A DNA stretch of 64,000 nt from Nitrosopumilus sp. (GTDB lineage Archaea > Thermoproteota > Nitrososphaeria > Nitrososphaerales > Nitrosopumilaceae), in NCBI GenBank assembly GCA_965219345.1, contig OZ244732.1:960001-1024000 (forward strand), written 5' to 3'. A model generated the notes under the pieces. That model saw only the letters and a list, made by a program, of their open reading frames with translations. It did no database searches and was not told the origin of the DNA. Position numbers and translations under genes: made by a program. This document shows, in pieces, positions 879 to 55,300 of this stretch (position 1 is the stretch's first letter; every line of letters begins with the position of its first letter).

Positions 879-1892
879 CTATGCTTTAGCTACTTTCATT
901 AGATTGGATATTTTGATATCCATTCCAAATCGCTTTTCGTGCTTTTTCATGTATAGGAATATTGCCATAAAGTCTGGTAATGCCTTGAAGAAGTTAAAGT
1001 CCTTGTGGATTTTTTTTCTAACGAAATTAAACACCTTAGCATATACCTTGAAGTGCTTATCAACTGCCTTTTCATATGCTGCAAAGTCATGCATATTTTC
1101 TAGGAATATATCCACACATTGCATAGATGGAATGATTCCTTCACCTAACATTGCAAAGACCGTACCAATTGATTCGCCAACACCAACTACCTTACCTGAA
1201 TAGAATGGTTTGCATCTATCTGGGGTTGCCAATCTAATTGGACGTCCTTTAGTTGCAAGTACTTTTCCTCCATATTTTTCCAAGAAATCATCAGTGGCTT
1301 TGATGTGATTCTTTTTGTAATCACCAGCTCCAATATGTGCCCATTTCTCCCCTAATGGAAAGTACCAAAAGTATCCAGACATTCCAGGGAATGGTTCCAA
1401 GTAAAAGTCATCAAATGGTACGCCATTCTCATATTCCACCTTGTACTCATATGTTGGCAAGAAGAAATCTTCTTTTAATTTTGGTAGATAAATTCTATGA
1501 AATCCTGTGCAATCAACTATCATGTCGTACTCTTTTTCTAGCTCTTCCAGCTTTGGTGCTGTTCCATAAAGTACCTTAGAATCTTTGATAAAATCTTTGA
1601 TTAGTCCTAATTTGTTATATGTACATAATCCATGCAGTCCGATATCAAATCTTACACCACTTCCCATCTTTACTTTCATGGTTTTTCCGTCATGAATCAT
1701 AAAGTCATCAAAATTTCTGCCAGTCTTTTCGCAGAACTTGTCTAGCTCTGACTTTATTGTCCCCCAAGCGCAGATAGAGTCGTGTCTCTCTTCCACCATT
1801 CTTTCATATCCTACAACTTCATGTTCAGAGTCTTTTAGTCTGGCCATCAGATAAGATCCTGCTACTCCCATACCCATTACTGCTATCTTCAA
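879..1892 (-). CDS. geranylgeranyl reductase-like FAD-dependent oxidoreductase
   Basis: N-terminal GMGVAG Rossmann motif, GYFWYFP and VGES..GEGI motifs of the GGR family. Confidence 0.8.
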   Translation of the reverse strand: MKIAVMGMGVAGSYLMARLKDSEHEVVGYERMVEERHDSICAWGTIKSELDKFCEKTGRNFDDFMIHDGKTMKVKMGSGVRFDIGLHGLCTYNKLGLIKDFIKDSKVLYGTAPKLEELEKEYDMIVDCTGFHRIYLPKLKEDFFLPTYEYKVEYENGVPFDDFYLEPFPGMSGYFWYFPLGEKWAHIGAGDYKKNHIKATDDFLEKYGGKVLATKGRPIRLATPDRCKPFYSGKVVGVGESIGTVFAMLGEGIIPSMQCVDIFLENMHDFAAYEKAVDKHFKVYAKVFNFVRKKIHKDFNFFKALPDFMAIFLYMKKHEKRFGMDIKISNLMKVAKA

Positions 1893-1959
1893 GGTATTTT
1901 GCGATTAATCACACCTAATAAAAATACATTTAGTGAGTAAACCAAAAGTTTAGTTACCT

Positions 1960-2694
1960 ATGAGGAAAAATGACAAAATGTTGATTAATAGATTTAATAA
2001 AATTTTCATTATTACTGCGATGTCATTATTTGTCGTATCTTCATTAGCTTCTGAAGCTTTAGGTTATGGTGGCCCTCCAGAACAAAGCAGTACTAACAAT
2101 TTCACTGTAGCGATATACTCTGATAAAGAATCATACAATCTTGGAGAAACAGTAACATTTTCTGGAAGTGTTAACAAGTATGATGAGGACAGAAATTTAC
2201 GGATCTCAATCTTTGATTCTAGTAACAAGTTTATTGCAACTCAGAAAACTCCAGTCAACGTTGATGGCACATTCTCTCACAGTGTAATACTAAATGAGAA
2301 ATTTTCTGATGGAAACTACATAGTTAAAGCTCAGTATGGAAGTTCAAAGACAACAGTAGAAAAAATGTCATTTGTGATAAATTCCAATGGTGCATCTATG
2401 GAAGAACAATTATCTGCTGGTCAAGTCCCTGATTGGATTAAATTTACTGCAGGTGTTTGGGTCGATGGAAACTCTTCAGATGGTGAATTTATTAGCGCAA
2501 TTAAGTTCCTTATTGAAGATAAAATTATTGTAATTCCACCAACTACACAAGGTTCAAACGGAGAATCTAATCAAGTTCCATCATGGATTAAATTCACTAC
2601 GGGTGTTTGGGTCGATGGAACATCTTCAGATGGTGAATTTATTAGCGCAATTCAATTCTTGATCAAAGAAGGAATTATGAAAATATCAAATTAA
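1960..2694 (+). CDS. secreted protein with Ig-like domain and two thaumarchaeal 'VPxWIK..AGxW' C-terminal repeats
   Basis: Signal peptide; tandem QVP(D/S)WIKFT(A/T)GVWVDG.SSDGEFISAI repeats typical of Nitrosopumilus surface proteins. Confidence 0.8.
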   Translation: MRKNDKMLINRFNKIFIITAMSLFVVSSLASEALGYGGPPEQSSTNNFTVAIYSDKESYNLGETVTFSGSVNKYDEDRNLRISIFDSSNKFIATQKTPVNVDGTFSHSVILNEKFSDGNYIVKAQYGSSKTTVEKMSFVINSNGASMEEQLSAGQVPDWIKFTAGVWVDGNSSDGEFISAIKFLIEDKIIVIPPTTQGSNGESNQVPSWIKFTTGVWVDGTSSDGEFISAIQFLIKEGIMKISN

Positions 2695-2838
2695 CTTAAA
2701 ATTTTAATTTAATTACAAACATATCTGGAAAAAAGAATTTGAGCCTGATTATTTGCGCTCAGAATCATATTTCTTGTGACATTTAGAAGAATAAAACAAA
2801 TGGTTCTAATAGTGACTAAAAAGACCTAGGAATCTGAT

Positions 2839-2988
2839 ATGAAATATCTATGCAGAACCTGTAAAACGAAATGTGATGATATTCCAATACATATGATTGA
2901 GGTACACAAATTTTCAAAATCAATTGTGGACTCACAACTCAAATCAAACCCAAATTCTTTTAAAAATGCCTTTGAAAAATTAGCATAA
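2839..2988 (+). CDS. C2H2-type zinc-finger microprotein (49 aa)
   Basis: MKYLCRTCKTKCDDIPIHMIEVHKF...; CxxC...HxxxxH; ends 13 nt before the eRF1-like gene. Confidence 0.6.
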   Translation: MKYLCRTCKTKCDDIPIHMIEVHKFSKSIVDSQLKSNPNSFKNAFEKLA

Positions 2989-3001
2989 TTATAGACCTAC
3001 A

Positions 3002-4075
3002 ATGCAAGCAAAACTTATGAAAAACAATCTGAAATCTTTAGAGATCTCCTCAGCAGAGTGGTATTCTCTAAATCAGTTTCTATATCAGATAAAACAGATT
3101 GACTCTCCATGTGTGTCGGTATACTATCCATATGGTAAGGGGAAAGAGACCATCTCTTTACTCCAAGAGACAAACAGGAAAGAGTCATTTGAAAGAATTG
3201 AATCAGCAATTGAGAAAAGAATCATACATCTTAGGAAGAATCCTTCGTCAGTAGGCAAGTTTGCAAAGACTCTATGTATTTTTGGATGGATAAAGAATGG
3301 CAAAGTACACACCAAAGAAATTGGAACCTCCAAGAGACTTCCCTACATCTACATGGCAAGCAAAAAACCATACATCAAACCATTCCGTGATATTCTCAAA
3401 ACCAATCATGATGTTTTACTAGTAACTCTTGATCAAAAATCTGCAAGAATACAGAAATTTCACGGGAGTCAGATAATTCAAGAAGCTAAACTTGGAATTG
3501 ATCTCCGAAGTAGACATAGAAAAGGAGGACAGAGTCAGGGAAGATTTCTAAGGGCAAGACAAACAAAGATTCATGTCTTCTTTAAGAAAGTTGCAACCAA
3601 AGTCAGAAACATGGATTCTAATTCTGAGTTGATACTGTTAGGTGGAATAGGTCCTGCAAAGACAGAATTTTACGGAGAACTAGACTCGGAACTGGTAAAA
3701 AAATGTCGATTTGTACAAGACTTGTCTTTCTCTACTCCTATTCATGATATTCACAAGAAGATAATTCATCACTTGTACCAGTATAGAAGACGATATGTCG
3801 CACAAATAATTGAAAAATACGAGAAACTATTCAAAGATGGACTAACTGCGAAAAGAAATGATGTTATCTACAAGGCATTAGAGATTGGAGCCGTAGATAC
3901 GCTTATTGTTTCTGTAGACTATCACACCAACTCCCAATTCAAAAGTATAATGAAGATGCTAGAGATTGCTAGAAATAATTCCACTAGAATAGAGTTTGCA
4001 GTATCTCCAAAAATTATTGAAAAACTAGATCTTCATAATTCTGTTCTAGCTATACTTCGATACAGAATAAAATAA
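3002..4075 (+). CDS. aRF1/eRF1 paralogue (archaeo-eukaryotic release-factor superfamily)
   Basis: HRKGGQSQGRF catalytic loop, CVSVY N-terminal strand, ALEIGAVDTLIV domain 3; no NIKS motif. Confidence 0.8.
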   Translation: MQAKLMKNNLKSLEISSAEWYSLNQFLYQIKQIDSPCVSVYYPYGKGKETISLLQETNRKESFERIESAIEKRIIHLRKNPSSVGKFAKTLCIFGWIKNGKVHTKEIGTSKRLPYIYMASKKPYIKPFRDILKTNHDVLLVTLDQKSARIQKFHGSQIIQEAKLGIDLRSRHRKGGQSQGRFLRARQTKIHVFFKKVATKVRNMDSNSELILLGGIGPAKTEFYGELDSELVKKCRFVQDLSFSTPIHDIHKKIIHHLYQYRRRYVAQIIEKYEKLFKDGLTAKRNDVIYKALEIGAVDTLIVSVDYHTNSQFKSIMKMLEIARNNSTRIEFAVSPKIIEKLDLHNSVLAILRYRIK

Positions 4076-43995: not shown

Positions 43996-44542
43996 GGGAT
44001 GGTAAGTTATCTACTGCAGTATTGAATCTGTCGGTAGCTTCAAGACCAGTTTCAACAGCTAAACGGTATTTTCTATCATATGTACCAATAGTGGCAAAGT
44101 ATGAACGCTCAGAAGTACTAGAATCTTGGGAATAACTTGCATCAACTTCAGCATCAACTTCAGCATCAACTGCAGGTGAAGAATAAGACAGTCCTGCTGA
44201 AACAGACAGACTACTAGATAGTTCTTTAATTGACATATGCACATGTTTAATCACTTGATAATCATCAGTACTATCAAGGACCAAACTTTCAGATACAAGG
44301 TAATGACTGTCACCGATTTGCACTTCAATAATATCATCATTATCAAAATCAAATAACGCAATTGGAACTGGATTATCTTTGGAAATTCCTAGTTATGTCA
44401 ACACCATAAAATTGACTGATTCTAGGTATTAGAAGAGCGTCAGAAGTTGAAACAGAATCTAGTTCGGTATTCATGACTGGCGCAGAACTTTTCAAACAAG
44501 TGGAAAAAATGATAGAAAAAAATAACCAGGAAATAAACTCAT
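43996..44542 (-). pseudogene. MACPF/perforin-like protein N-terminal remnant
   Basis: Signal-like N-terminus, GVDIT / PIALFDF, SSSLSVSAGLS..ASYS, FNTAVDNLPSHF; frameshift near 44390; truncated before the GTH motif. Confidence 0.55.
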
Positions 44543-44640
44543 TACGTCCAAACTATCACCCATTTTAACAGATTCTGCGAAATTAATATATGATGTTAAT
44601 TAAAACATAATTTGAAAGAAATTATAGTAGTTCTCAAAGT

Positions 44641-45183
44641 TTATTGTTGAACTGATGATTTAATTAATTCAGGAAATCCTGCCTGTTTTAGTCCTATATC
44701 ATTTTGTAACTGTTGTATTCTAGAGGCATAATGAAATGCATTTTTGTAATCACGATCTAATTGGGCTTTTTTGTATTCTGCCCAGCATTCCTGTAACTCA
44801 TTCCATATTTCACTAATATCAAAGCCAGATTTTGTTTGAATTGGTTTATCGAATTTGATCATAGTTTCGATGAAAAAAATACTATCCTTTGTCAAGTGTA
44901 AAATTTGATTAAGTAATTCGTCAAAATGAAAATTATTGAGCGGAATTTTTTTATTAAATTCAGTTAAAAAATAAAATTTTGAAAAACCAACTTCTGGAAT
45001 CCTATATCTAGTTGAATGTGACTTTCCCAATTCTTCCAAATTGTTTAACGAGTCTTGTACCTGTCTTGGAGAATAATGATTTTCCAATATGATTTCAATT
45101 GCCGCTTCATGTCTCGGAGTTATTTTTGGGCGATTTGATGAATCATAGAATATTTTTAGAATTTCTTGTTCAATTTCTCGCAT
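44641..45183 (-). CDS. hypothetical, probably chimeric (wHTH-like fragment + small helical protein starting MIKFDK)
   Basis: Two compositionally distinct halves joined by an AT-rich linker. Confidence 0.45.
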   Translation of the reverse strand: MREIEQEILKIFYDSSNRPKITPRHEAAIEIILENHYSPRQVQDSLNNLEELGKSHSTRYRIPEVGFSKFYFLTEFNKKIPLNNFHFDELLNQILHLTKDSIFFIETMIKFDKPIQTKSGFDISEIWNELQECWAEYKKAQLDRDYKNAFHYASRIQQLQNDIGLKQAGFPELIKSSVQQ

Positions 45184-45362
45184 TATTTAATTGACATTTT
45201 ATTTAAAGTTGAATTTTTCGCAAAAAATTTCTATTTTTCATACCTAATTCTTTACTTTTTACGTTGAGCTAGGTTTTTATGCTTTAATCCGTGAGCAATG
45301 TATAGTCAGTTCATAGATCTATGTATACTAGGATCTTTGATCTAACTAGAGGTTGATCATAG

Positions 45363-45959
45363 ATGGTAAAATTCAAAACAAAAGAAGAAAATATGCAATT
45401 ACGGTACATGCTAGAGAATCCAGCATTTACTCAAAGACAGATGTCTAGAGATATTGGCATCAATCATGGGGCAAGAATTAGTAGTTTTGTAAGATGGCTT
45501 GAGAGTTTCAAATTTGTTAAAAAAACAATTGACGAGAAAGGAAAACCAATTTACCAAGTTCCATCCAGACAAGCATTACTAGCTTTCTACAATCGATTTC
45601 GAGATATGCAAAATGAAAAAATTGGAACTTATACCATTGGTCCTGATCCGGATTTTACAATGAAATATCTAAGTAAAAATGGAGGAATAATGTGTTTAAC
45701 AAGTGCACTGAAATTTTATGATGATTATGCAAGAGATCCTGAATTACATGCATATGTAGAAAATCCATCATTACTTGAAGAAGTCCAGTCTTCAGAAGGC
45801 AAAATAAAAGTTCATCTATATTGGTACAAATATCCTGACGATTCAAGAATGGAAGACGAAGTTAAGATTACATCACCAACTAGAACAATAATGGATCTTT
45901 ATTGTAGCAATATGGCATATTTGGCTGAGCGTTTAATCTCCCGAAAGTGGTATCTATGA
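45363..45959 (+). CDS. AbiEi-like type IV antitoxin (wHTH + C-terminal domain)
   Basis: FTQRQMSRDIGI HTH; CLTSAL, ITSPTRTIMDLY. Confidence 0.75.
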   Translation: MVKFKTKEENMQLRYMLENPAFTQRQMSRDIGINHGARISSFVRWLESFKFVKKTIDEKGKPIYQVPSRQALLAFYNRFRDMQNEKIGTYTIGPDPDFTMKYLSKNGGIMCLTSALKFYDDYARDPELHAYVENPSLLEEVQSSEGKIKVHLYWYKYPDDSRMEDEVKITSPTRTIMDLYCSNMAYLAERLISRKWYL

Positions 45960-46684
45960 GTTATGATGATTATGATAAAAAATTTACGGATGTAAGCTTT
46001 GATGAATTAAAAAAATTTTTGAGATGGATGAATGAAAAGAAGGGGATATACCCCATAATTATTGGAGGTTGGGCAGTATACGCCTACAAACAGGCACTAG
46101 GTTCAAAGGATATAGATGTAGTAATGCCAACAGACAAAGATCTTAATGACGTACTATTAACGGAATATTTTCCTGCTAACGGATATGATGTAAAAAAAGA
46201 TCAATTTTTCAATCCAAAATATTATGTAAAAGAAGTAGAAGATAAAGGCAGGACAAAAGAAATTATTGTGGATGTATTTATCGGCAATTTTTCAAAAGAG
46301 GATGAAGAAGGATTAGGAATAAAATTCCACTGGGAAGAAGTTATGAAACATCAAGAGCTGAAGGAATTGGGAAGTCTTTCGTTATACGTCCCAAAGCTCG
46401 AATTATTGGTATTTTTGAAGGTTGTAGCCTCACTAGAACGTACTTCAAAGTATGATAAAACAGGCGATCCCAATATTCCTTCAAAAATTTGGAAGGATTA
46501 TTATGACATTGCAATATTGATTTCATTGAACAAGTTAGACAAGGAATTATTAAGTAAATTTCTACAAGAGTCTAATGTTCAACAATATGTAGAAAGGTTT
46601 CTTTTGGGATACAAAACAGATTATTCTAAAATTTTAGATGATTTAGGCATGACATATCAAAATTTAGAGGGTTGTTTCAATTAA
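45947..46684 (+). CDS. AbiEii-like nucleotidyltransferase toxin
   Basis: IIIGGWAV..SKDIDVV pol-beta NTase motif, LVFLK, KDYYDI; overlaps the antitoxin. Confidence 0.78.
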   Translation: MVSMSYDDYDKKFTDVSFDELKKFLRWMNEKKGIYPIIIGGWAVYAYKQALGSKDIDVVMPTDKDLNDVLLTEYFPANGYDVKKDQFFNPKYYVKEVEDKGRTKEIIVDVFIGNFSKEDEEGLGIKFHWEEVMKHQELKELGSLSLYVPKLELLVFLKVVASLERTSKYDKTGDPNIPSKIWKDYYDIAILISLNKLDKELLSKFLQESNVQQYVERFLLGYKTDYSKILDDLGMTYQNLEGCFN

Positions 46685-47343
46685 AGCAAAGAAGCTTTCA
46701 ATGTAATTGTTAGGTGTATATCAATAACGTGCACGGGATTTAAAAGAATAGTTTGACACCTTCAATGTATTTTCATATCGGAACTGGGGAGTTAACGGGA
46801 TCTGATTCCTCCTGGGAAACGTTGGGAGCTGGAACAAGGAATCTGCAAGCCCCAACTTTACACTGCCACCTTTGTAAAATATTACGTTCTGCATTGGTAT
46901 CACTTATTGCAGGAATGAAGAATAAAATCAGTAATGGGATACTATTTTTTATTCAATTCATCAAGAGTCTATAATATCCAAATAGATTGTATCATCAGAA
47001 CGAGAATACATTGCTTTGTAGTCCTTATTGCTTCCCATTATAGCTCCTTGTGCATTCATGACTTCTTCTTCTTCTGTTGCATCAGCATCTAAAAATTTCA
47101 ACCATACACGATTAAAACAAAGCATAAAGTGTTCTTGACTTCTAATTCGTGAAATTTAGATCTAAAATCTTTTGGTTTTTCTAGATTAACCATCTCTGAG
47201 CTCGGCTACAAAATCTTTAAAACAATTTGACTTTGTAGTAGCCTCTCCTAGTGTTTTTTTGAAAGCTTCTAATTCTTCTTTTGTGCTGGATTCAAATATT
47301 TCTCGCATATTGTGTATTATTCCAGTAGTCGGAAATATGCCTC

Positions 47344-47878
47344 TTAGGCAGATCCTCCGACATCATACGGTTGACCCGCCATCCTGCATAATTCCAACGC
47401 AGCCATTGCCGTAGCATATGCGACAAGTGCCAGGGTTACCCGATCATAATTTGAATCTGTTCGGTACTGCTCCACTGCCCATGCATTGTACATGAACATC
47501 GAGACGTGAAACATGATTCCCCTAAATGACGCATTGCGGCTTGTTGTCCTCGGACGCACCTGCTCGACCTGCTTGTATCCTGTCTCTATTCCCCACCTAC
47601 TCTTGTACTCATCTGGAAGCGTCTCAATCTCTTCTAATGCCTTGGCTGGGGAAAGGTTGGTGGCAAAGACATTGTATCTTTCCGTGATGTCAGCATCAGG
47701 ATCGTCTATCTTTTTTGATGGCGTGATTATCAATGTAAATGTGGCAGACTGACCTGCTGCGTTTCTGATGGCGTACTGTGAGACTGCCTTGCGTGATTTA
47801 TCGTGGTGCTCCCGTATCATCCTCTTTATCCCCGCGTTCTTGACTGCAGGCATCAGGAACTTGCATCTATGTTCTGAT
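47344..47878 (-). pseudogene. ISH3-type transposase, C-terminal part
   Basis: FATN and YKSRWGIETGYK (YREK-type) motifs. Confidence 0.88.
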
Positions 47879-47952
47879 GGTTCTGTAACGTTATCGTTAC
47901 CTGAAAACACGATCTTCTAAGGATTGAGATTTTACAAGCTAAAATGATGATA

Positions 47953-49095
47953 TTATTGATATTGACTAAGTGAGGCGTTTTGAATGATGGTCTTCCACTT
48001 GTTATTTCCATCAACTAGAATACCAGCTAATTCGGCTGGAGTCTTCTTGCCAATTCCACCATGCTTCTTTGAGAAATTGTAAAATGTCTGAAATCCGTCA
48101 AAGAGAGGACTGTCCATCTTTTTTATTCCCCTGTATGATACTTCCCTGTCTCTGATTGTACCGTTCAATCGCTCCATTCTGTTGTTGTTTTTGTCGCCTT
48201 TCATGTGGATATGGCGTATATGTTTCGTGTCTTTACATAGGAAATTCTTGGCCTTGTAGTTATTTTTCCATGCCTCATGGAAATTATGAGCTCCATCAGA
48301 GATTAGGGTTTTTGGTATCTTGTCTGCAATCATCATGGCTTCCCTGAACATTGGGTTTACATTTTCAGTACCTTTTGTATTTGCCACATATTGGGTAATC
48401 ATAAATCTGGTCTCATGGTCTAACATGGAATACTGGAGTTTCATATTGCCTTTTATCTTCATAAAAATCTCATCTGTTCTCCAAGTTTCAGATACCCTTG
48501 GAACTATGCCCTTTACGTAATCTGCAACCATCTTAGAGTATTTTTCAATCCATCTGTATACTGTCATGTGAGATACCTTGATGTCCTCCTGTTCAAAAGC
48601 ATCTGCAATATCCCTGACACTCATTCCTGCAAAGTACGATTGTAAGGCACGTGTAATTAGTACGTCCTTTGATCTCATTTTCTCAAAACCTAAATTTAGT
48701 GTGAATATCTTCTTACAATCCTTGCATTTGTATTGCTGGGTATTGCCTTTCCTGTTTTTTCTGATTCCCTTTTTGGTTAACCTGCCTGATGAACAGAACT
48801 TGCATAATGGGAGTTTTGACTGATCCATCATTCTAAATTCCTGTCTGGTATTACTTTGATTCTTTTTGATTAGTTCCAGTACAATCTTGATGTGCTTGCA
48901 GTCTGATTTTCTTTTGATGTGGTCTGGACAATCGCAAATTAACCCACCATCTGTCCTTGATATGATATAGTGAATCTGTGGTATGCTTTGTGATCTTACG
49001 CTGAATTTTTCAGGACTGAACTGTTTTACACAGTTTGGTTTTTCCATCATTTGTCTGGCTCTCTGGGTTCTTGGGTTCATACAATAAGGTATCAT
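47953..49095 (-). CDS. IS6-family DDE transposase with N-terminal SWIM and zinc-ribbon domains
   Basis: CDCPD..CKH, CKFC..YKCKDC, HTH, WRTDE, LISDG, NNNRMERLNG; uninterrupted. Confidence 0.92.
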   Translation of the reverse strand: MIPYCMNPRTQRARQMMEKPNCVKQFSPEKFSVRSQSIPQIHYIISRTDGGLICDCPDHIKRKSDCKHIKIVLELIKKNQSNTRQEFRMMDQSKLPLCKFCSSGRLTKKGIRKNRKGNTQQYKCKDCKKIFTLNLGFEKMRSKDVLITRALQSYFAGMSVRDIADAFEQEDIKVSHMTVYRWIEKYSKMVADYVKGIVPRVSETWRTDEIFMKIKGNMKLQYSMLDHETRFMITQYVANTKGTENVNPMFREAMMIADKIPKTLISDGAHNFHEAWKNNYKAKNFLCKDTKHIRHIHMKGDKNNNRMERLNGTIRDREVSYRGIKKMDSPLFDGFQTFYNFSKKHGGIGKKTPAELAGILVDGNNKWKTIIQNASLSQYQ

Positions 49096-49180
49096 TTACG
49101 GTAATATAAACATAAGGTAATAATTAAGGTATCAATACAATAAGGTAATAATAAATACCAGTACCTTATTTGATACCTTA
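49085..49180. promoter_or_regulatory. TAAGGTA heptamer array in divergent promoter
   Basis: TAAGGTA at 49085, 49113, 49125 and 49141; inverted TACCTTA at 49162 and 49174. Confidence 0.7.
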
Positions 49181-49347
49181 TGGTAGAGTCTACAAAACTG
49201 CAAGCTGCAAATATAGCCAAGTCACTTAGAGCTACTGTGCCTATGTCAATAGTCAAACAACTTGAATTGAACGAAGGCGATTATCTCGAATGGGATTTGG
49301 ACAAAGACAGTAAGGGTTGGGTTGTCAAGGTGAGGAGGAGAAAGTGA
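49180..49347 (+). CDS. AbrB/MazE/SpoVT-family DNA-binding protein (55 aa)
   Basis: MVESTKLQAANIAKSLRATVPMSIVKQLELNEGDYLEWDLDKDSKGWVVKVRRRK; below the ORF-track cutoff. Confidence 0.85.
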   Translation: MVESTKLQAANIAKSLRATVPMSIVKQLELNEGDYLEWDLDKDSKGWVVKVRRRK

Positions 49348-49354
49348 GATCAAT

Positions 49355-50224
49355 TTGATCAATTCAAAACTTAAACGTAAAGGAGTAAGGGTAAATGTAA
49401 CATTGAGACAAAAGACAAAACTCAAAGTTGATTTGGATAAAATCTACAATGAGAACTGTCTTAAGACGATGGCAAAAATGCCTGATAATTTTCTAGACCT
49501 TGTGATTACATCTCCTCCTTATGATAACATGAGACGATATGATGGCAATACCTTTTGTGAGTTTGAGCAGATAGCTGCGGAATTGTATCGTGTAATAAAA
49601 GTAGGCGGAGTCGTTGTATGGGTTGTAGGTGATCAGACTAAGAGTGGTGACGAAAGCGGGTCATCGTTCAAACACGCTTTGTATTTTAAAAAAATTGGTT
49701 TTAACCTGTTTGATACGATGATATATCTAAAACCCCCTCGTGGTGCAGTGGGAAATAACAAGACATACTGGCAGACATTCGAGTACATGTTTGTATTGTC
49801 AAAAGGACTGCCTAAAACAATCAATCTGCTAATGGACAGAGAAAACAAGGATGCAAGAGATGGTGATAACGGCACAAAGCGTCTGCATAACGGCAATCTG
49901 AAAAAACTAAGACGTGGAGGATATGAAAAAAATGGCAGAAGAACCAACGTATGGCAGTATAATATCGGCAATGGACATTCCGCAACCGACAGTTTCGCAC
50001 ACAAACACCCTGCAATCTTTCCTGAAAGTCTGGCAGAAGATCATATTTTGTCGTGGAGTGATAAGAACGATATCGTGTATGATCCATTTATGGGATCAGG
50101 AACCACTGCAAAGATGGTAATGCTAAACAAGCGTCACTATATTGGCAGTGAGATAAGCAAGGATTATTACAAGCTCGCAAATGACCGAATAAAGGATTGT
50201 CAGACCCAGATGCGACTAAGTTAA
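49355..50224 (+). CDS. beta-class amino-DNA methyltransferase (SPPY, likely m4C)
   Basis: LVITSPPY (motif IV), HPAIFP, VYDPFMGSGTT (motif I). Confidence 0.93.
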   Translation: MINSKLKRKGVRVNVTLRQKTKLKVDLDKIYNENCLKTMAKMPDNFLDLVITSPPYDNMRRYDGNTFCEFEQIAAELYRVIKVGGVVVWVVGDQTKSGDESGSSFKHALYFKKIGFNLFDTMIYLKPPRGAVGNNKTYWQTFEYMFVLSKGLPKTINLLMDRENKDARDGDNGTKRLHNGNLKKLRRGGYEKNGRRTNVWQYNIGNGHSATDSFAHKHPAIFPESLAEDHILSWSDKNDIVYDPFMGSGTTAKMVMLNKRHYIGSEISKDYYKLANDRIKDCQTQMRLS

Positions 50225-50616
50225 AATGGTGTCGAGAGTGCAAACGGGATAAACTGGGAATACATTTTGCCAAGAACCAGTTTGGAAAAGATAACAGAAT
50301 ACTACGCAGACCTGTCTGCAAGGAATGTTATGCCAAAAAGAAGACAATAGACCCAAAGCTAAGGCGTGAATATTTAAAAAAACATCCTGCACCTGCAATA
50401 GGCAAGAGATTTACCTGTCCAATATGTCAAAAATCAAAAATCAGGGAACACAATAACGAGGTAAACCTTGATCATAACCATAAAACAGGCAAGATTAGGG
50501 GATGGATATGTAGCAGCTGTAACACAAGCATAGGCAAATTCAATGAGGATGTGAACGTCCTTGAAAGGGCAATCAAGTGGCTAAAGGGAACATTGCTGTC
50601 CTTCTTCTTCTTGTGA
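50197..50616 (+). CDS. Hpy99I-like / endonuclease VII-fold (beta-beta-alpha-Me) type II restriction endonuclease
   Basis: CREC..F.KNQ..RPVCKEC, FTCPIC, LDHNHKTGKIRGWICSSCNTSIG; overlaps the MTase stop. Confidence 0.8.
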   Translation: MSDPDATKLKWCRECKRDKLGIHFAKNQFGKDNRILRRPVCKECYAKKKTIDPKLRREYLKKHPAPAIGKRFTCPICQKSKIREHNNEVNLDHNHKTGKIRGWICSSCNTSIGKFNEDVNVLERAIKWLKGTLLSFFFL

Positions 50617-50720
50617 AGCGACGGTACTTAACACGGATAATCAGGCGACGCTAACTTAGCAATACCTTGAATCAATCCTTAGAAGATCGTGTTTTCAGGT
50701 AACGATAACGTTACAGAACC

Positions 50721-51435
50721 GTTCTGATACAAGATTGATTATTTCAGTAGAGTAGAACTCGCGGTCCATCAGCAGCAGCCGGGCCCGTATCCTGTAACCC
50801 TTGAGTTTTTGTACGAATTTACGCACAAAATCGGCATCATCCACGCTGCGCGTTACCTGCATGCACTCCAAAATGGCAGGAACCCGTTCTGCTACCACAT
50901 GCATTGTTGCGTAACACTCGAACTTACTTGTACCGCCCTTTGGTTTGGATCTTGTCAAATGTGACATGTTGTCCTTGTCATGCCTTGGTATCAGGTGCTT
51001 GTCTATTGCTACTAGTACGCCTCCCTTGTATCGGCATGTATTCTTGGCAAGTCTTGCGGTGCGTGTGAGCATGTCCCTGCAGAGTTTGTCTGCACTGCCT
51101 GATCCCAGCGAGTTTATCCTGTTGCGAAACCACTTGGGTGATGGCATCTTCTTTTCTGCGTGCTTGAGAAGCCTGATTGCTTCCTCGGAAGCTATGTTGG
51201 ATTCAGACATCTTCATCAGTATGGCTACAAACTCGCTTACCCCATATTGAGCATTCTTCCTAGTAGAGAATCCTATGGATGAAGACTCTAGTATTGCTGA
51301 CAAGGTATTAAGTATCCTTTCTCCAATCTTGTTACGGTGTACCTGCCCACCTTTTTGCACTAACACTAAGGTGGGTAAGGGCACTGTAGATAATAGATCT
51401 GTATGATCGAAAAATGTTAACGCATCAGAGAGCAT
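50721..51435 (-). pseudogene. ISH3-type transposase, N-terminal part
   Basis: VAIDKH and LLMDREFYS motifs; joins the C-terminal part in frame (INLVSE|HRCKF) after removing the nested element. Confidence 0.88.
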
Positions 51436-51529
51436 CTGTTGGCTGGTTTTATGGGGACATTTCCGACTACTGCATTCAATATAGGGTTAATAAATATGAA
51501 CCACTTTCCTTGATAAAGAGACTAATTAA

Positions 51530-52313
51530 TTCTCATCTTTGAGTGTCTTGACTGTAAAAAGAAATTCTCTACAAACTTTGGATTTGAAAATATGAGATAT
51601 GACTATACCGTCATAACAGGAGCTCTACAAATGTACTATTCAGGTATGAGTGTAAGAGACATTGAAAATCACTATGAAATGCTGGGAATTGAAGTAGACC
51701 ACAGTTCTATCATGATTGGATTTGTAAATATTCTATAATGGTTAGCAAGTATCCAAATGAGATAGTTCCTAGAACCAACGAAAGAGTAATGGTAAGAGCC
51801 GATGAGGTTTGGATTAAGGTAAATGGCAAACAGAATTATTTGTTTGCCTCAATGGAAGATGATAGTCGTCATTGGCTAGCTAGCGATATGGCAGATACAA
51901 AGTTTCAACACAATGCAGACAATCTATTAAAGCTCACAAAGGAAGCAATAGGCAGAAATCCAGTTTATTTTGTAACTGACGGATTACCAGCTTGTTGTAT
52001 GAAATCATCAAAGAAAGTGTTTGGAAAAAAGACACTTCATACTAGGCATATTCACATTCAAAAGGATATGAACAACAACAAAATGGAGAGGATGAACGGA
52101 GAAATCAGAGACAGAGAGAAAGTATTCAGAAGTCTTAAGAAGATTGATACACCTATCATTGATGGTATGAAAGCCTATTACAATTTCACAAAAAAACATG
52201 GTATATTGAAAGGAAAAACTCCAAGTGAGGAAGCCTTGATTAAAGTAGATGGGAAAAATAGATGGAAAGCTATCATTGAGAACGCTAGTCTTTACAGGGA
52301 GAATTCGGTCTGA
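51530..52313 (+). pseudogene. IS6-family transposase, frameshifted
   Basis: FECLDCKKKFSTNFGF and YYSGMSVRD lie upstream in another frame; ADEVWIK, VTDG and NNNKMERMNG in ORF 51738-52313. Confidence 0.85.
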
Positions 52314-52347
52314 TTTACCACTTGATAACCCAACAAAACCAAAGAAT

Positions 52348-55300
52348 ATGATTAATATAGCTATATTTTCTGAGAAATATGTGAATATTAATTACAAAAA
52401 CATATTGTGCCTTATGGCGCTGCTTTTTGTAGTGTATGGCACGACGACACTAACTGTATATGCTCAAACTGATAACCCACCGACAATCATCGCAGCTTCT
52501 GTGACCTCGACTACCGAGATAGTCCTGACGTACAGCGAGAACATAGAGGTCCCAACCACAAACGGCACGGGATTCGCCCTTTCCACCGGAGGAACGGTGA
52601 CGGCAAACACTGATCCCGCCGGCTCGGGCAACGTCATAACGCTTACCGTCTCCGGCATCACCAACACATCCGATACTCCGGCCATAACCTACACCGAATC
52701 ACTTGGCACCGTGGCAGACAGTGCATCAAACCAGGCGGCAGACCAGATCTTTGACCGCACAACCGATGACGCGCCGCCAACGGTATCTTCCATTGCAACT
52801 TCCGGCACATCAACAGTTGACGTCATACTGTCCGAAGACGTCATATACAACTTGGCAGCACCCGAAGATTTTGTGCTGTTTGTGCAGTCTGGCAACACGC
52901 TCACCTCCATGACTATAGGTGAAATCACGGCCGTTGACAACACGCTTACCCTTGACCATGACGCTACGCTTGCTAGTGATGATGTCATCAATCTGGAATA
53001 CAACAAAGCCACGGGCAGCATAGATGACATTATTCGTCCATCCTTTGTCGACTCTTTCTCAGTGGCATCACAAGAATTGTTCCCGCGAGATCTGGCCTTC
53101 TCCAACAACGGTACCAGGATGTTTGTTACGGGTGATGACGGCAATGACGTAAACGAGTACGCATTATCCGCCCCATTTGACATATCCCCCGCCACCTTTG
53201 TCGACTCTTTCTCGGTGGCAGATGAGGACCAAACCCCGATAGGCCTGGCCTTCTCTGCTAACGGAACCAGGATGTTTGTCGTGGGTGATGACAGCAATGA
53301 AGTATACCAGTACACACTAGCCGCCCCCTTTGACGTATCCAATGTCACCTCTGACAGCTCCTTCCTAGTGTCAACAGAAACGACATCCCCGCGGGGCCTG
53401 GCCTTCTCCAACGACGGAACAAAGATGTTTGTCCTGAGTTTCGCTGACAGTGTCGTATACCAGTACACACTAACCACCCCCTTTGACGTATCCACTGCCG
53501 TCTCTAGCTCCTTTTTCTCAGCGGCTTCACAGGACTCAATCCTAATTGGCCTGGCCTTCTCTGCCGACGGTACCAGGATGTTTGTTGCGGGTAGTCATAA
53601 CGATAAAGTATACCAGTACGCGCTGACTGCCGCCTTTGACGTAGGCACTGCCACCTTTGTCGACTCCTTCTCAGTACGTTCACAGGATGGCACCCCGCGG
53701 GGCCTGGCCTTCTCTGCTGACGGAGCAAGGATGTTTGTAGTGGGTGATGATAACGATAACATAAACGAGTACGCGCTGCCAAAACCATTTACGTTGTTCC
53801 CACAGCCAAACTCGCTTGCCAGCTTTACGGCAACCTTGGTCGAAAACAACATTCCATCAGATACGACCCCGCCAACAATCACCGCAGCTTCTGTGACCTC
53901 GGCTACCGAGATAACCCTGACATACAGCGAGAACATAGACGCCGACAGCACGGACGGCGCAGGATTCACCCTCTCCGTCGGACAAGTGACGGCAAACACC
54001 GATCCCGGAGGTTCGGGCAACACCATAACACTTACCGTCTCCGGCATCACCAACACATCCGATACTCCGGTCATAACCTATGCCGAATCACTTGGCACCG
54101 TGATAGACACCGCATCAAACCCGGCAGCAGACCAGACCTTTGACCACACAACCGATGACGCGCCGCCAACCGTGTCCTCCATTGCAACTGCCACGATGTC
54201 AATAATTGACATCGTGCTGTCCGAGAACGTCGCATACAACTCCGCGGCACCAGAAGACTTTGTGCTGTCTGGCACCATATCCCCAGACTCGGCCGTGACC
54301 GCAATCGCAGTCATTGCAGACACGGTCACCCTTTTCCTTGACGGCATGCTTGCTCATGATGATGTCATTAACCTGGCATACACCAGAACCACGGGCAGCA
54401 TAAATGACATTCCTTCTCCTCCGTCCTTTGTTGACTCTTTCTCCGTGTCCTCACAAGACGGAAGACCGCAGGGTCTGGCCTTCTCCAACGACGGAACAAA
54501 GATGTTTGTTGTGGGTGATGATAACGATGAGATAAACGAGTACACACTATCCATCCCCTTTGACGTATCCACCGCCACCTTTGTCGACTTTTTCCCAGCG
54601 GCTTCACAGGACTCATCCCCGCAGGGTCTGGCCTTCTCCAACGACGGAACCAAGATGTTTGTAGTGGGCAATATCGGCGATGAGATAAACGAGTACACAC
54701 TATCCATCCCCTTTGACGTATCCACCGCCACCTTTGTCGACTTTTTCCCAGTGGATTCACAGGATACAATACCGCGAGACATAGCCTTCTCCAACGACGG
54801 AACAAAGATGTTTGTTGTGGGCAATGACGACAATGACATAAACGAGTACACACTGTCCGCCCCCTTTGACGTATCCACCGCCACCTTTGTCGACTCTTTC
54901 CCAGTGGCATTACACGCATCATCCCCGCGGGGTCTGGCCTTCTCTGATGACGGACACGGGATGTTTGTTGTGGGTCACATCAATGTCGTAGTCAAGTACG
55001 AATTAACCGCCCCCTTTGACGTATCCACTGCCTCCCATGTCACCTCCTTCTCCGTGAAATCACAGGACGGCGTGCCATCGGGCCTGGCCTTCTCCAACGA
55101 TGGTACCAGGATGTTTGTTCTAGACAATGGCAACGATGCCGTACGCGAGTACGCGCTGTCGGATCCATTTACGTTGTTCCCACAGCCAAACTCGCTTGCC
55201 AGCTTTGCGGCAACCTTGGTCAAAAACAACATTGCACCACCAGATACGACCCCGCCAACAATCACCGCAGCTGCCGTGACCTCCCTTACCGAGATAGTCC

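Follow-up and report, generated by a model that had tools for sequence, protein, structure and literature searches.

This study concerns a 64,000-nucleotide (nt) stretch of the genome of Nitrosopumilus sp. (GenBank assembly GCA_965219345.1, contig OZ244732.1, positions 960,001 to 1,024,000 of the forward strand), referred to below as the window, and a unit within it, element A, in which a transposase gene and a putative restriction-modification (R-M) system are enclosed by the same pair of terminal inverted repeats (TIRs). A repeat search of the window revealed a perfect inverted repeat (IR) of 49 nt, whose arms at 47879-47927 and 50672-50720 are 100% complementary and spaced by 2744 nt; the span from TIR to TIR is 2842 bp. 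The arm at 47879..47927 (+) lies on the 3' side of the transposase gene and has the tip GGTTCTGT, and the arm at 50672..50720 (-) closes the cargo side. Each TIR contains an internal palindrome of the form GTAACG-N4-CGTTAC (GTAACG-TTAT-CGTTAC, TIR positions 7-22). The 8-mer GTTCTGAT abuts both TIRs directly and constitutes the target site duplication (TSD), with its left copy at 47871..47878 and its right copy at 50721..50728. Four open reading frames (ORFs), all of them open, lie between the TIRs: that of a 380-amino-acid (aa) transposase (47953-49095, -) and, running divergently from it, those of a 55-aa AbrB-like protein (49180-49347, +), which comes first, a 289-aa DNA methyltransferase (MTase; 49355-50224, +) and a 139-aa Hpy99I-like nuclease (50197-50616, +).

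The unit was found to lie inside another insertion sequence (IS). This target, a ~1.3-kb IS (47323..51472, -) assigned to the ISH3 family by the NCBIfam ISH3 model (NF033541) and equipped with a 19-nt IR of its own, was cut in two by the insertion: the transposase halves at 47344-47910 (-) and 50695-51435 (-) match complementary parts of the profile, positions 164-296 and 24-174, with E-values of 9.8e-20 and 2.4e-18. The 700 bp on the left and the 900 bp on the right each align to three intact ~1.3-kb paralogues elsewhere in the genome, one of which (C1:1516950-1518250) is 100% identical to both flanks, the two others being 99.5-99.6% identical. In each paralogue, the left- and right-flank alignments overlap by exactly 8 bp, which means that the 8-mer is single-copy at the empty site. 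Given this single copy, the 2842 bp were inserted as one unit, the boundaries are fixed and chance is ruled out. The whole unit, including its cargo, entered the ISH3-family IS in one event that made the 8-bp duplication, and this insertion is recent. These results bear out a first-pass annotation of the window, which had described perfect 49-bp TIRs with an internal palindrome, an exact 8-bp TSD and a recent insertion from which the target can be cleanly reconstituted.

As the base composition of element A (38.5% guanine plus cytosine, GC) is close to that of the window (39.1%), it carries no foreign signature. There is a similarity between the target 8-mer GTTCTGAT and the TIR tip GGTTCTGT, and in a related element, L049, the TSD ACAGAACT reads as a tip-like word on the opposite strand. 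Such tip-like TSDs, two of 28 exact ones in total, may be due to chance or to a weak preference for such targets. IS remnants crowd this region: a second IS6-like transposase (51538-52313, +), located 66 bp past the end of the interrupted ISH3-like IS, is split in two frames and aligns to query residues 122-179 and 182-376 with 40-50% identity.

The transposase

The transposase (47953..49095, -) was correctly described as intact, since its 380-aa ORF is open and its DDE residues are present. It comprises an N-terminal CxC..CxH motif, a CxxC..CxxC zinc ribbon and a helix-turn-helix (HTH), followed by the DDE core (D208, D267, E308). The core matches Pfam DDE_Tnp_IS240 (PF13610) with an E-value of 2.7e-13 and 50.7 bits, against a cut-off of 27. 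The best transposase family is NCBIfam IS6 (NF033587), of which profile positions 1-202 are covered, and IS481 is next with 48 bits. In addition, the TIR tip of element A, GGTTCTGTAAC, is a GG tip with a CTGT motif and matches the IS6 IR description. The score against NF033587 nevertheless amounts to 97-99 bits (97.1; 98.9), below the curated cut-off of 125. The family label of the first-pass annotation can therefore be upheld in part: the IS240-type domain, the GG..CTGT tip and the 8-bp TSD speak for IS6, the sub-threshold score speaks against it, and we regard the membership suggested by these matches as partial.

With regard to the N-terminal part, the protein had been described as a SWIM/zinc-ribbon transposase. 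D208, D267 and E308 are invariant in 46 sequences, and the cysteines and histidines of the CxC..CxH motif and of the ribbon are conserved in the same 46 homologues, C54, C66 and H68 being invariant and C56 at least 90% conserved. The four latter residues form a possible SWIM-like site. The SWIM label is thus softer than the description implied: it has the conserved CxC...CxH pattern behind it, and Pfam gave no SWIM match for residues 1-140 even at E<=10. An AlphaFold2 (AF2) model of the transposase (predicted local distance difference test, pLDDT, 84.4) matches the fold of the ISCth4 transposase best (E 5e-7) and that of retroviral integrases. These are matches to generic RNase-H-like transposases and integrases only, and the fold search gave no identification of the N-terminal domain. 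A sequence search of the PDB with the transposase yielded no match at E<=0.01.

Sister elements and relatives in Nitrosopumilaceae

The same 1.91-Mb genome (36% GC) was found to contain six TIR-bounded elements (A, B, C, D, G and H) with transposases of 364-387 aa, which are 46-84% identical to that of A. All six carry R-M genes, and together they amount to 22.2 kb, or 1.2% of the genome. Element B (C1:1847202-1851771; 4570 bp; TSD TTGACGAG) encodes a 906-aa protein with all five MmeI Pfam domains and has its own empty-site paralogues in IS630-like copies. Element C (3380 bp) carries genes for a BglII-like restriction endonuclease (REase) and an MTase; element D (3978 bp), for an MTase and a 428-aa unknown protein; element G (4169 bp), for an EcoRI-type methylase, a DUF262/HNH protein (PADLOC REase_II, 2.8e-132) and an Mrr fragment; and element H (3244 bp; TSD TCATATCA), for a methylase broken by stops. 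Exact 8-bp TSDs are present in three of the six (A, B and H). The transposases of A, B and C are 83-84% identical and are accompanied by different cargo, and these sister elements carry unrelated R-M systems. As a control for enrichment, four of the 13 above-cut-off matches to the methylase domain PF01555 genome-wide fall inside the six elements.

Further PF01555 matches were observed at most ~2 kb from IS6-like transposase fragments or just outside element G (G000:C1:1233578-1234540, 794795-797298, 1765674-1766654 and 1224004-1224294), and these loci may be decayed cargo-bearing elements. Short IS6-like elements of 983-985 bp with ~220-aa transposases are also present in the genome. Two TIR pairs resemble miniature inverted-repeat transposable elements (MITEs) and have no TSDs: C1:1084819-1085197 (379 bp) and C1:1169890-1170009 (120 bp). 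Over 50 nt, their outer ends at 1084819(+) and 1170009(-) differ hardly at all, despite the 85 kb between them, and a rearrangement may have left this trace. Within element B, an 82-aa ORF (L020:2531-2779, G000:C1:1848732-1848980) lies between the small ORF and the MmeI-type gene. It consists largely of four tandem copies of FTKTLQRLYKD and corresponds to a 33-bp tandem repeat in the DNA.

A profile search with one genome per species gave 78 loci, all of them in Nitrosopumilus, Nitrosopumilaceae or Nitrososphaerota records. Elements were delimited by inverted repeats that flank the transposase and have tips matching G[GA]T[TA]CTG, and 37 of the 78 loci gave a TIR pair. Two of them, L036 and L040, were dropped because their flanks are reverse-complementary and the repeats are parts of longer ones, leaving 35 relatives. 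Many of the loci with no TIR pair have truncated genes or lie at contig ends. The TSD is an exact 8-bp repeat in 25 relatives, has one mismatch in two and three or more mismatches in eight. The 41 elements (the 35 relatives and the six of this genome) measure 1855-7034 bp, with a median of 3332 bp, and none of them consists of a transposase alone. Across the 82 element ends, conservation of TIR positions 1-7 follows by construction from the search pattern, and T8, T13, T16 and G18 are conserved beyond it. The GTAACG-N4-CGTTAC palindrome was considered as a family feature and rejected: it occurs in only four of the 82 ends, those of A and its closest sister B, and is probably not essential.

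Among the 106 non-overlapping ORFs of at least 70 aa counted as cargo in the 35 relatives, 29 are R-M-related, and they are distributed over 16 elements. They include IIG enzymes, an MTase with an HNH protein, MunI with MT-A70, CfrBI with an MTase, two further REase_II and MTase pairs, HsdM with HsdS, two type III Mod and Res pairs, an EcoRI-methylase with HNH and GmrSD proteins, and an MmeI gene that another IS has split. A Panacea antitoxin pair, NurA and DUF4760 are among the remaining cargo, and 19 elements carry unknown genes only. As judged from these domain matches, cargo carriage is lineage-wide and is enriched in predicted R-M genes. The cargo of element G and that of L067 are 74.6% identical at the nucleotide level, and the transposase DNA of the two is 70.9% identical; as the two values are alike, cargo and backbone diverged together, and cargo can stay with its backbone. 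This catalogue agrees with the claim of the first-pass annotation that a cargo-carrying IS spreads in thaumarchaea, and the comparison of TIRs and transposases that it had proposed yielded the 35 further delimited elements, 16 with R-M genes. In the sense of the ISfinder term, element A is a transporter IS, as passenger genes lie inside the TIRs of a one-transposase IS and no internal TIR-like site is present in it.

Such an internal TIR-like site was found in only three of the 41 elements. In L048, an inner site bounds a 1558-bp core (positions 1611-3168) consisting of the small ORF and the transposase, and this core lies inside a 3168-bp TSD-flanked element that also carries a NurA-domain gene. 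The arrangement hints at the capture of cargo via an alternative outer end. Cargo-bearing copies that are 99.7-99.9% identical, L076 and L078, occupy two sites of one genome.

These comparisons bear on the question of whether element A could be an accidental structure, in which an IS6-like IS inserted next to an R-M operon that was already there, the distal TIR is the solo end of another copy and the cargo is immobile. In its favour, the genome contains solo and MITE-like TIR pairs, and three of the 41 elements have an inner TIR-like site, including the one that bounds the L048 core. However, the empty-site paralogues demonstrate that the inserted unit is exactly the span from TIR to TIR plus 8 bp, inside another IS, and element A is devoid of an internal TIR-like site. 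Moreover, in 25 relatives the entire unit, cargo included, is flanked by an exact 8-bp TSD, and L076 and L078 represent one such unit at two sites. We consider an accidental origin extremely improbable.

The manner in which the unit moves is less clear-cut. The first-pass annotation had it spread by simple insertion, that is, by cut and paste rather than by IS6-type replicative cointegration. The single chromosomal copy with a clean TSD would fit this, as would the size of the units (2-7 kb, unlike the 0.8-kb IS26-type elements) and the extra N-terminal domains of the transposase, which are absent from classical IS6. Nevertheless, IS6 cointegration followed by resolution also ends in a single copy flanked by a TSD, as the family is described by Varani et al. 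(2021, PMC7986276), so that the claim of simple insertion is not borne out. The IS6-like DDE core likewise argues for replicative transposition, and the persistence of L076 and L078 in one genome fits a copy-in mode but does not prove it. Overall, cut and paste appears unlikely, if still a serious contender.

Genes resembling those for transfer RNA (tRNA) were detected by ARAGORN in several elements: L023:2208-2294(-), L024:2460-2546(+), L049:5875-5960(+), L085:5873-5960(+), L084:7232-7315 and L097:7141-7227. They were identified as Leu-CAG in elements G and H of this genome and as Ile-TAT in L049 and L085. Four of them share the strand of the transposase gene and precede its start by 40-50 nt. 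These tRNA-like genes possibly represent a promoter or processing signal, or else tRNA cargo. No tRNA-like gene was found by ARAGORN around element A, at 44000-54000. Virus-borne copies were also considered and rejected, as the sole match in 2.9 million viral contigs was one short transposase fragment. In databases, 1,565 homologues of the transposase are listed under generic names only ("DDE-type integrase/transposase").

Predicted R-M cargo and putative regulator slot

The first cargo enzyme of element A (49355..50224, +) is predicted to be a beta-class N6/N4 DNA MTase. It contains the motifs SPPY and DPFMGSGTT, matches Pfam N6_N4_Mtase (5.1e-39) and is recognised by the PADLOC models oMTase (1.5e-88) and MTase_II (1.3e-49). 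Its best PDB matches are N4-cytosine MTases, over the C-terminal part only. The second (50197..50616, +) resembles the beta-beta-alpha-Me nuclease Hpy99I and matches Pfam Endonuclease_7 (1.3e-18) and PADLOC REase_II (1.5e-20). It has a TTG start with in-frame stops directly upstream, and the start of its gene overlaps the MTase stop by 28 nt. Residues 10-130 of the nuclease align with residues 76-196 of the 200 of Hpy99I (PDB 3fc3) with an E-value of 3.5e-18, and the DHNH and CxxCN motifs and all four CxxC pairs are identical in this 121-residue alignment (3fc3_A). Both the SPPY MTase and the Hpy99I-like nuclease of the first-pass annotation were thus recovered, the latter by the very comparison that it had suggested. 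Compared with Hpy99I itself (PDB 3fc3, 3gox), the catalytic and zinc-binding region is homologous, whereas the nuclease of element A is shorter (139 aa vs 200 aa) and has no counterpart of residues 1-75, and its partner methylase belongs to the N6/N4 beta class. As adjacent genes for an MTase and a putative restriction endonuclease, the pair would qualify as a type II R-M system.

Avoidance of the palindrome CGWCG was considered and rejected as uninformative: 205 and 196 occurrences were observed against 245 and 247 expected, a mild under-representation with a weak ratio of ~0.8, and two sites lie in element A. A 41-aa fragment at G000:C1:649341-649526, 83% identical to the C-terminus of the nuclease and located beside a TIR-like tip at 649341, seems to be what is left of a related element at its cargo side. 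The idea that the AbrB-M-R cargo (AbrB-like, MTase and nuclease genes) has independent copies in metagenomes was rejected: the nuclease relatives are at most 48% identical, and neither this methylase nor this transposase lies nearby in any of 80 loci, many of which are on short contigs.

Because the N-terminus of the nuclease is truncated and the best match of the MTase is an orphan model, the pair could be non-restricting. The unit would then be mobile and carry an orphan or epigenetic methylase together with a truncated HNH/EndoVII-type nuclease that serves in another role, such as nicking, homing or junction resolution, or is inactive. The nuclease is devoid of the N-terminal ~65-75 residues of Hpy99I and also matches T4 endonuclease VII, the oMTase model fits the MTase best, the metagenomic nuclease relatives are unlinked to a methylase like that of element A, and the methylase of the sister element H is broken. 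On the other hand, the classic M-then-R layout with its 28-nt overlap, the retention of the catalytic DHNH...N and of all eight zinc cysteines, and the match to REase_II all favour restriction. Furthermore, both ORFs are intact in a very young insertion, and sister elements carry complete systems (MmeI, BglII-like with MTase, MunI with MTase, CfrBI with MTase, type III Mod with Res). A non-restricting pair is therefore rather improbable, and a restricting one remains our preferred reading.

The first gene of the cargo operon (49180..49347, +) encodes a small predicted DNA-binding protein of the AbrB/SpoVT/MazE type, with a match to Pfam MazE_antitoxin (PF04014; 3.7e-06, 27.2 bits vs a cut-off of 24.7). 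Between it and the transposase gene lies a putative divergent control region (49085..49180), in which TAAGGTA/TACCTTA occurs six times and reaches into both start codons; this density, six copies in ~100 bp, compares with 0.068 per kb as the background of the genome. Homologues of the AbrB-like gene, oriented divergently from the transposase gene and located 85-240 nt upstream of it, were found in C, L034, L052 and L084 as well as in four loci with no defined ends. The cargo of these four elements is unrelated to that of element A. In all five AbrB-type elements, the region between the two genes contains an iterated short motif (4-7 copies) that touches both start codons: besides that of element A, these are ATAGGTAA in C and L034 (four copies each), TAGGTAA in L052 (four copies) and AGGTTAT in L084 (seven copies).

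The first-pass annotation had interpreted the AbrB-like protein as the controller of the R-M system. Such a dedicated analogue of a controller (C) protein would delay restriction after entry and have no function in the backbone. In its favour, the AbrB-like gene heads the AbrB-M-R operon, 8 nt upstream of the methylase gene, and likewise precedes a methylase gene in C and L052. However, in L034 it lies between TIR and transposase with no gene behind it, and the cargo, the Panacea antitoxin pair, is found beyond the transposase; in L084 the ORF that follows it is not an R-M one. Relative to the transposase gene, the AbrB-like gene and its motifs stay at the same place across transposases that are only 46-48% identical, and B, D, G and H carry R-M genes and have other, non-homologous small ORFs in the same slot. 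Since homologues occur at the same transposase-linked place in elements with unrelated cargo, the AbrB-like gene is a backbone gene and not a cargo-specific C protein gene, and the earlier interpretation was not confirmed; we see only a small chance for it. The protein resembles the C proteins of type II R-M systems in being small, predicted to bind DNA, first in its operon and associated with repeated operator-like sites. It differs from them in its fold, which is of the AbrB/SpoVT rather than the HTH type, and in that its gene travels with the transposase and not with a particular R-M system.

An ORF of 47-76 aa divergent from the transposase was observed in nearly every element (e.g. L057:5709-5882, L038:5714-5932 and L097:5619-5801). 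Four apparently unrelated types can be distinguished: AbrB-like, "WKKD...IPKP", "YLYYxYY...YCG" with a coiled coil, and zinc ribbon. The third gave weak Arm/AP2-type matches. The possibility that the type-2 small ORFs are divergent AbrB proteins was rejected, as hhalign gave a probability of 0.5% and Pfam no match, and it is not claimed here. From these arrangements, we infer that the small-ORF slot belongs to the IS and holds a regulator module of it, at the head of the cargo operon.

Taken together, these results make it very probable that the 2842 bp constitute an autonomous transposon from a branch of IS6 that is divergent and extended at the N-terminus, and that this transposon belongs to a lineage widespread in Nitrosopumilaceae with mainly R-M and other defence cargo. 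Several observations weigh against this interpretation. All 24 IS6-like matches in this genome, like that of element A, fall under the NF033587 cut-off of 125, the best reaching 122.7 bits. D and G have no TSD and C has a 7-bp repeat only. The census is partial and biased by the tip pattern, with 41 of the 78 loci giving no TIR pair, and 19 of the 35 relatives have no recognisable R-M gene. To these may be added the shortened nuclease, the orphan-type best match of the MTase and the unlinked metagenomic nuclease relatives described above.

Under the favoured interpretation, the DDE transposase would bind the GGTTCTGT-tipped TIRs and move the unit by IS6-type copy-in, with a cointegrate and subsequent homologous resolution, or possibly directly. 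The AbrB-like protein would bind the six TAAGGTA repeats in the 84-bp divergent region and through them co-regulate the transposase gene and the AbrB-M-R operon. The beta-class MTase (SPPY; N4-C or N6-A) would protect host DNA, and the Hpy99I-like nuclease, probably translationally coupled to it, would cut unmodified DNA. Through this protection and cutting, the pair may provide defence for the host and post-segregational stabilisation for the element. Copy-in transposition, control through AbrB operators, and the activity and specificity of methylation and restriction are thus proposed here from sequence.

A more far-reaching proposal is that this Nitrosopumilaceae-wide IS6-like clade is a dedicated modular shuttle for defence genes. 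Its backbone would consist of a TIR, a small DNA-binding regulator with iterated operators and sometimes a tRNA-like gene, the transposase and the second TIR. Whole R-M systems of types I, II, IIG, III and IV, toxin-antitoxin pairs and unknown genes would be swapped in a fixed cargo slot between near-identical backbones, with capture maybe via alternative outer TIRs, and the clade would be a main route by which R-M systems are gained, lost and exchanged in ammonia-oxidising archaea. We advance this proposal tentatively, at slightly short of an even chance.

The lineage in relation to known systems

IS6 and IS26 are minimal IS that move cargo only as pseudo-compound transposons, and few plasmids or viruses are known from the ammonia-oxidising archaea, a globally abundant group. 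A clade that routinely encloses complete R-M systems inside its own TIRs would change the picture of IS6 as a minimal IS, and its elements would provide ammonia-oxidising archaea with a concrete vehicle to which the patchy distribution of their R-M systems could be traced. They may also offer a compact natural system for the cooperation of a selfish addiction module and a transposon, with one transposase, one small regulator, operator-like repeats and exchangeable cargo, and ~1,500 generically named database transposases can now be flagged as markers of such elements. A full-text literature search brought up no account of R-M cargo in IS6-type elements and none of IS6 in Thaumarchaeota. Thaumarchaeal IS have been described as elements of one or two genes (Krupovic et al. 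2019, PMC6563490); the main text of that paper does not contain the whole word "IS6", although the family might be listed in its figures or supplementary tables.

In the account of Varani et al. (2021, PMC7986276), IS6 elements generate 8-bp repeats, measure 700-890 bp and are bounded by 15-20-bp IRs in which a GG tip and a cTGTt motif are found. The passages of that review drawn on here name archaeal clades from Halobacteria, Thermococcales, Methanococcales and Sulfolobales, zinc-finger (ZF)-extended clades h and i, and a single passenger-carrying member, ISDsp3, with a passenger of unknown function. Measured against this account, element A shares with the IS6 (IS26) family the IS240-type DDE core with an HTH, the 8-bp repeats and the GG tip with the CTGT motif, and with clades h and i the N-terminal zinc-finger extension of the transposase. 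It differs in size (2.8 kb, and 1.9-7.0 kb in its clade, vs 0.7-0.9 kb), in its TIRs (49 nt vs 15-20 nt), in its four ORFs (at least three extra genes) instead of a single one, and in its host range, which is Nitrosopumilaceae.

Two R-M units with TIRs and an 8-bp TSD were reported from Xanthomonas oryzae and Neisseria gonorrhoeae by Furuta, Abe and Kobayashi (2010, PMC2853133), in whose screen, as that report presents it, no archaeal R-M unit survived. Their units and element A have in common R-M genes bounded by inverted repeats, an 8-bp duplication and an empty-site comparison. In the cases that the report sets out, which are isolated ones, the transposase is absent or a degenerate COG3677-type one, whereas here it is intact and belongs to a whole lineage with apparently interchangeable R-M cargo. 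A lineage with variable cargo rich in defence genes is also represented by the Tn7-like transposons, in which, according to Benler et al. (2021, PMC8649781), defence systems dominate the cargo. In that description, Tn7-like transposons are large, multi-gene and site-specific and rely on TnsABC(D), in contrast to the clade of element A, whose members are IS-type units of 2-7 kb with a single transposase.

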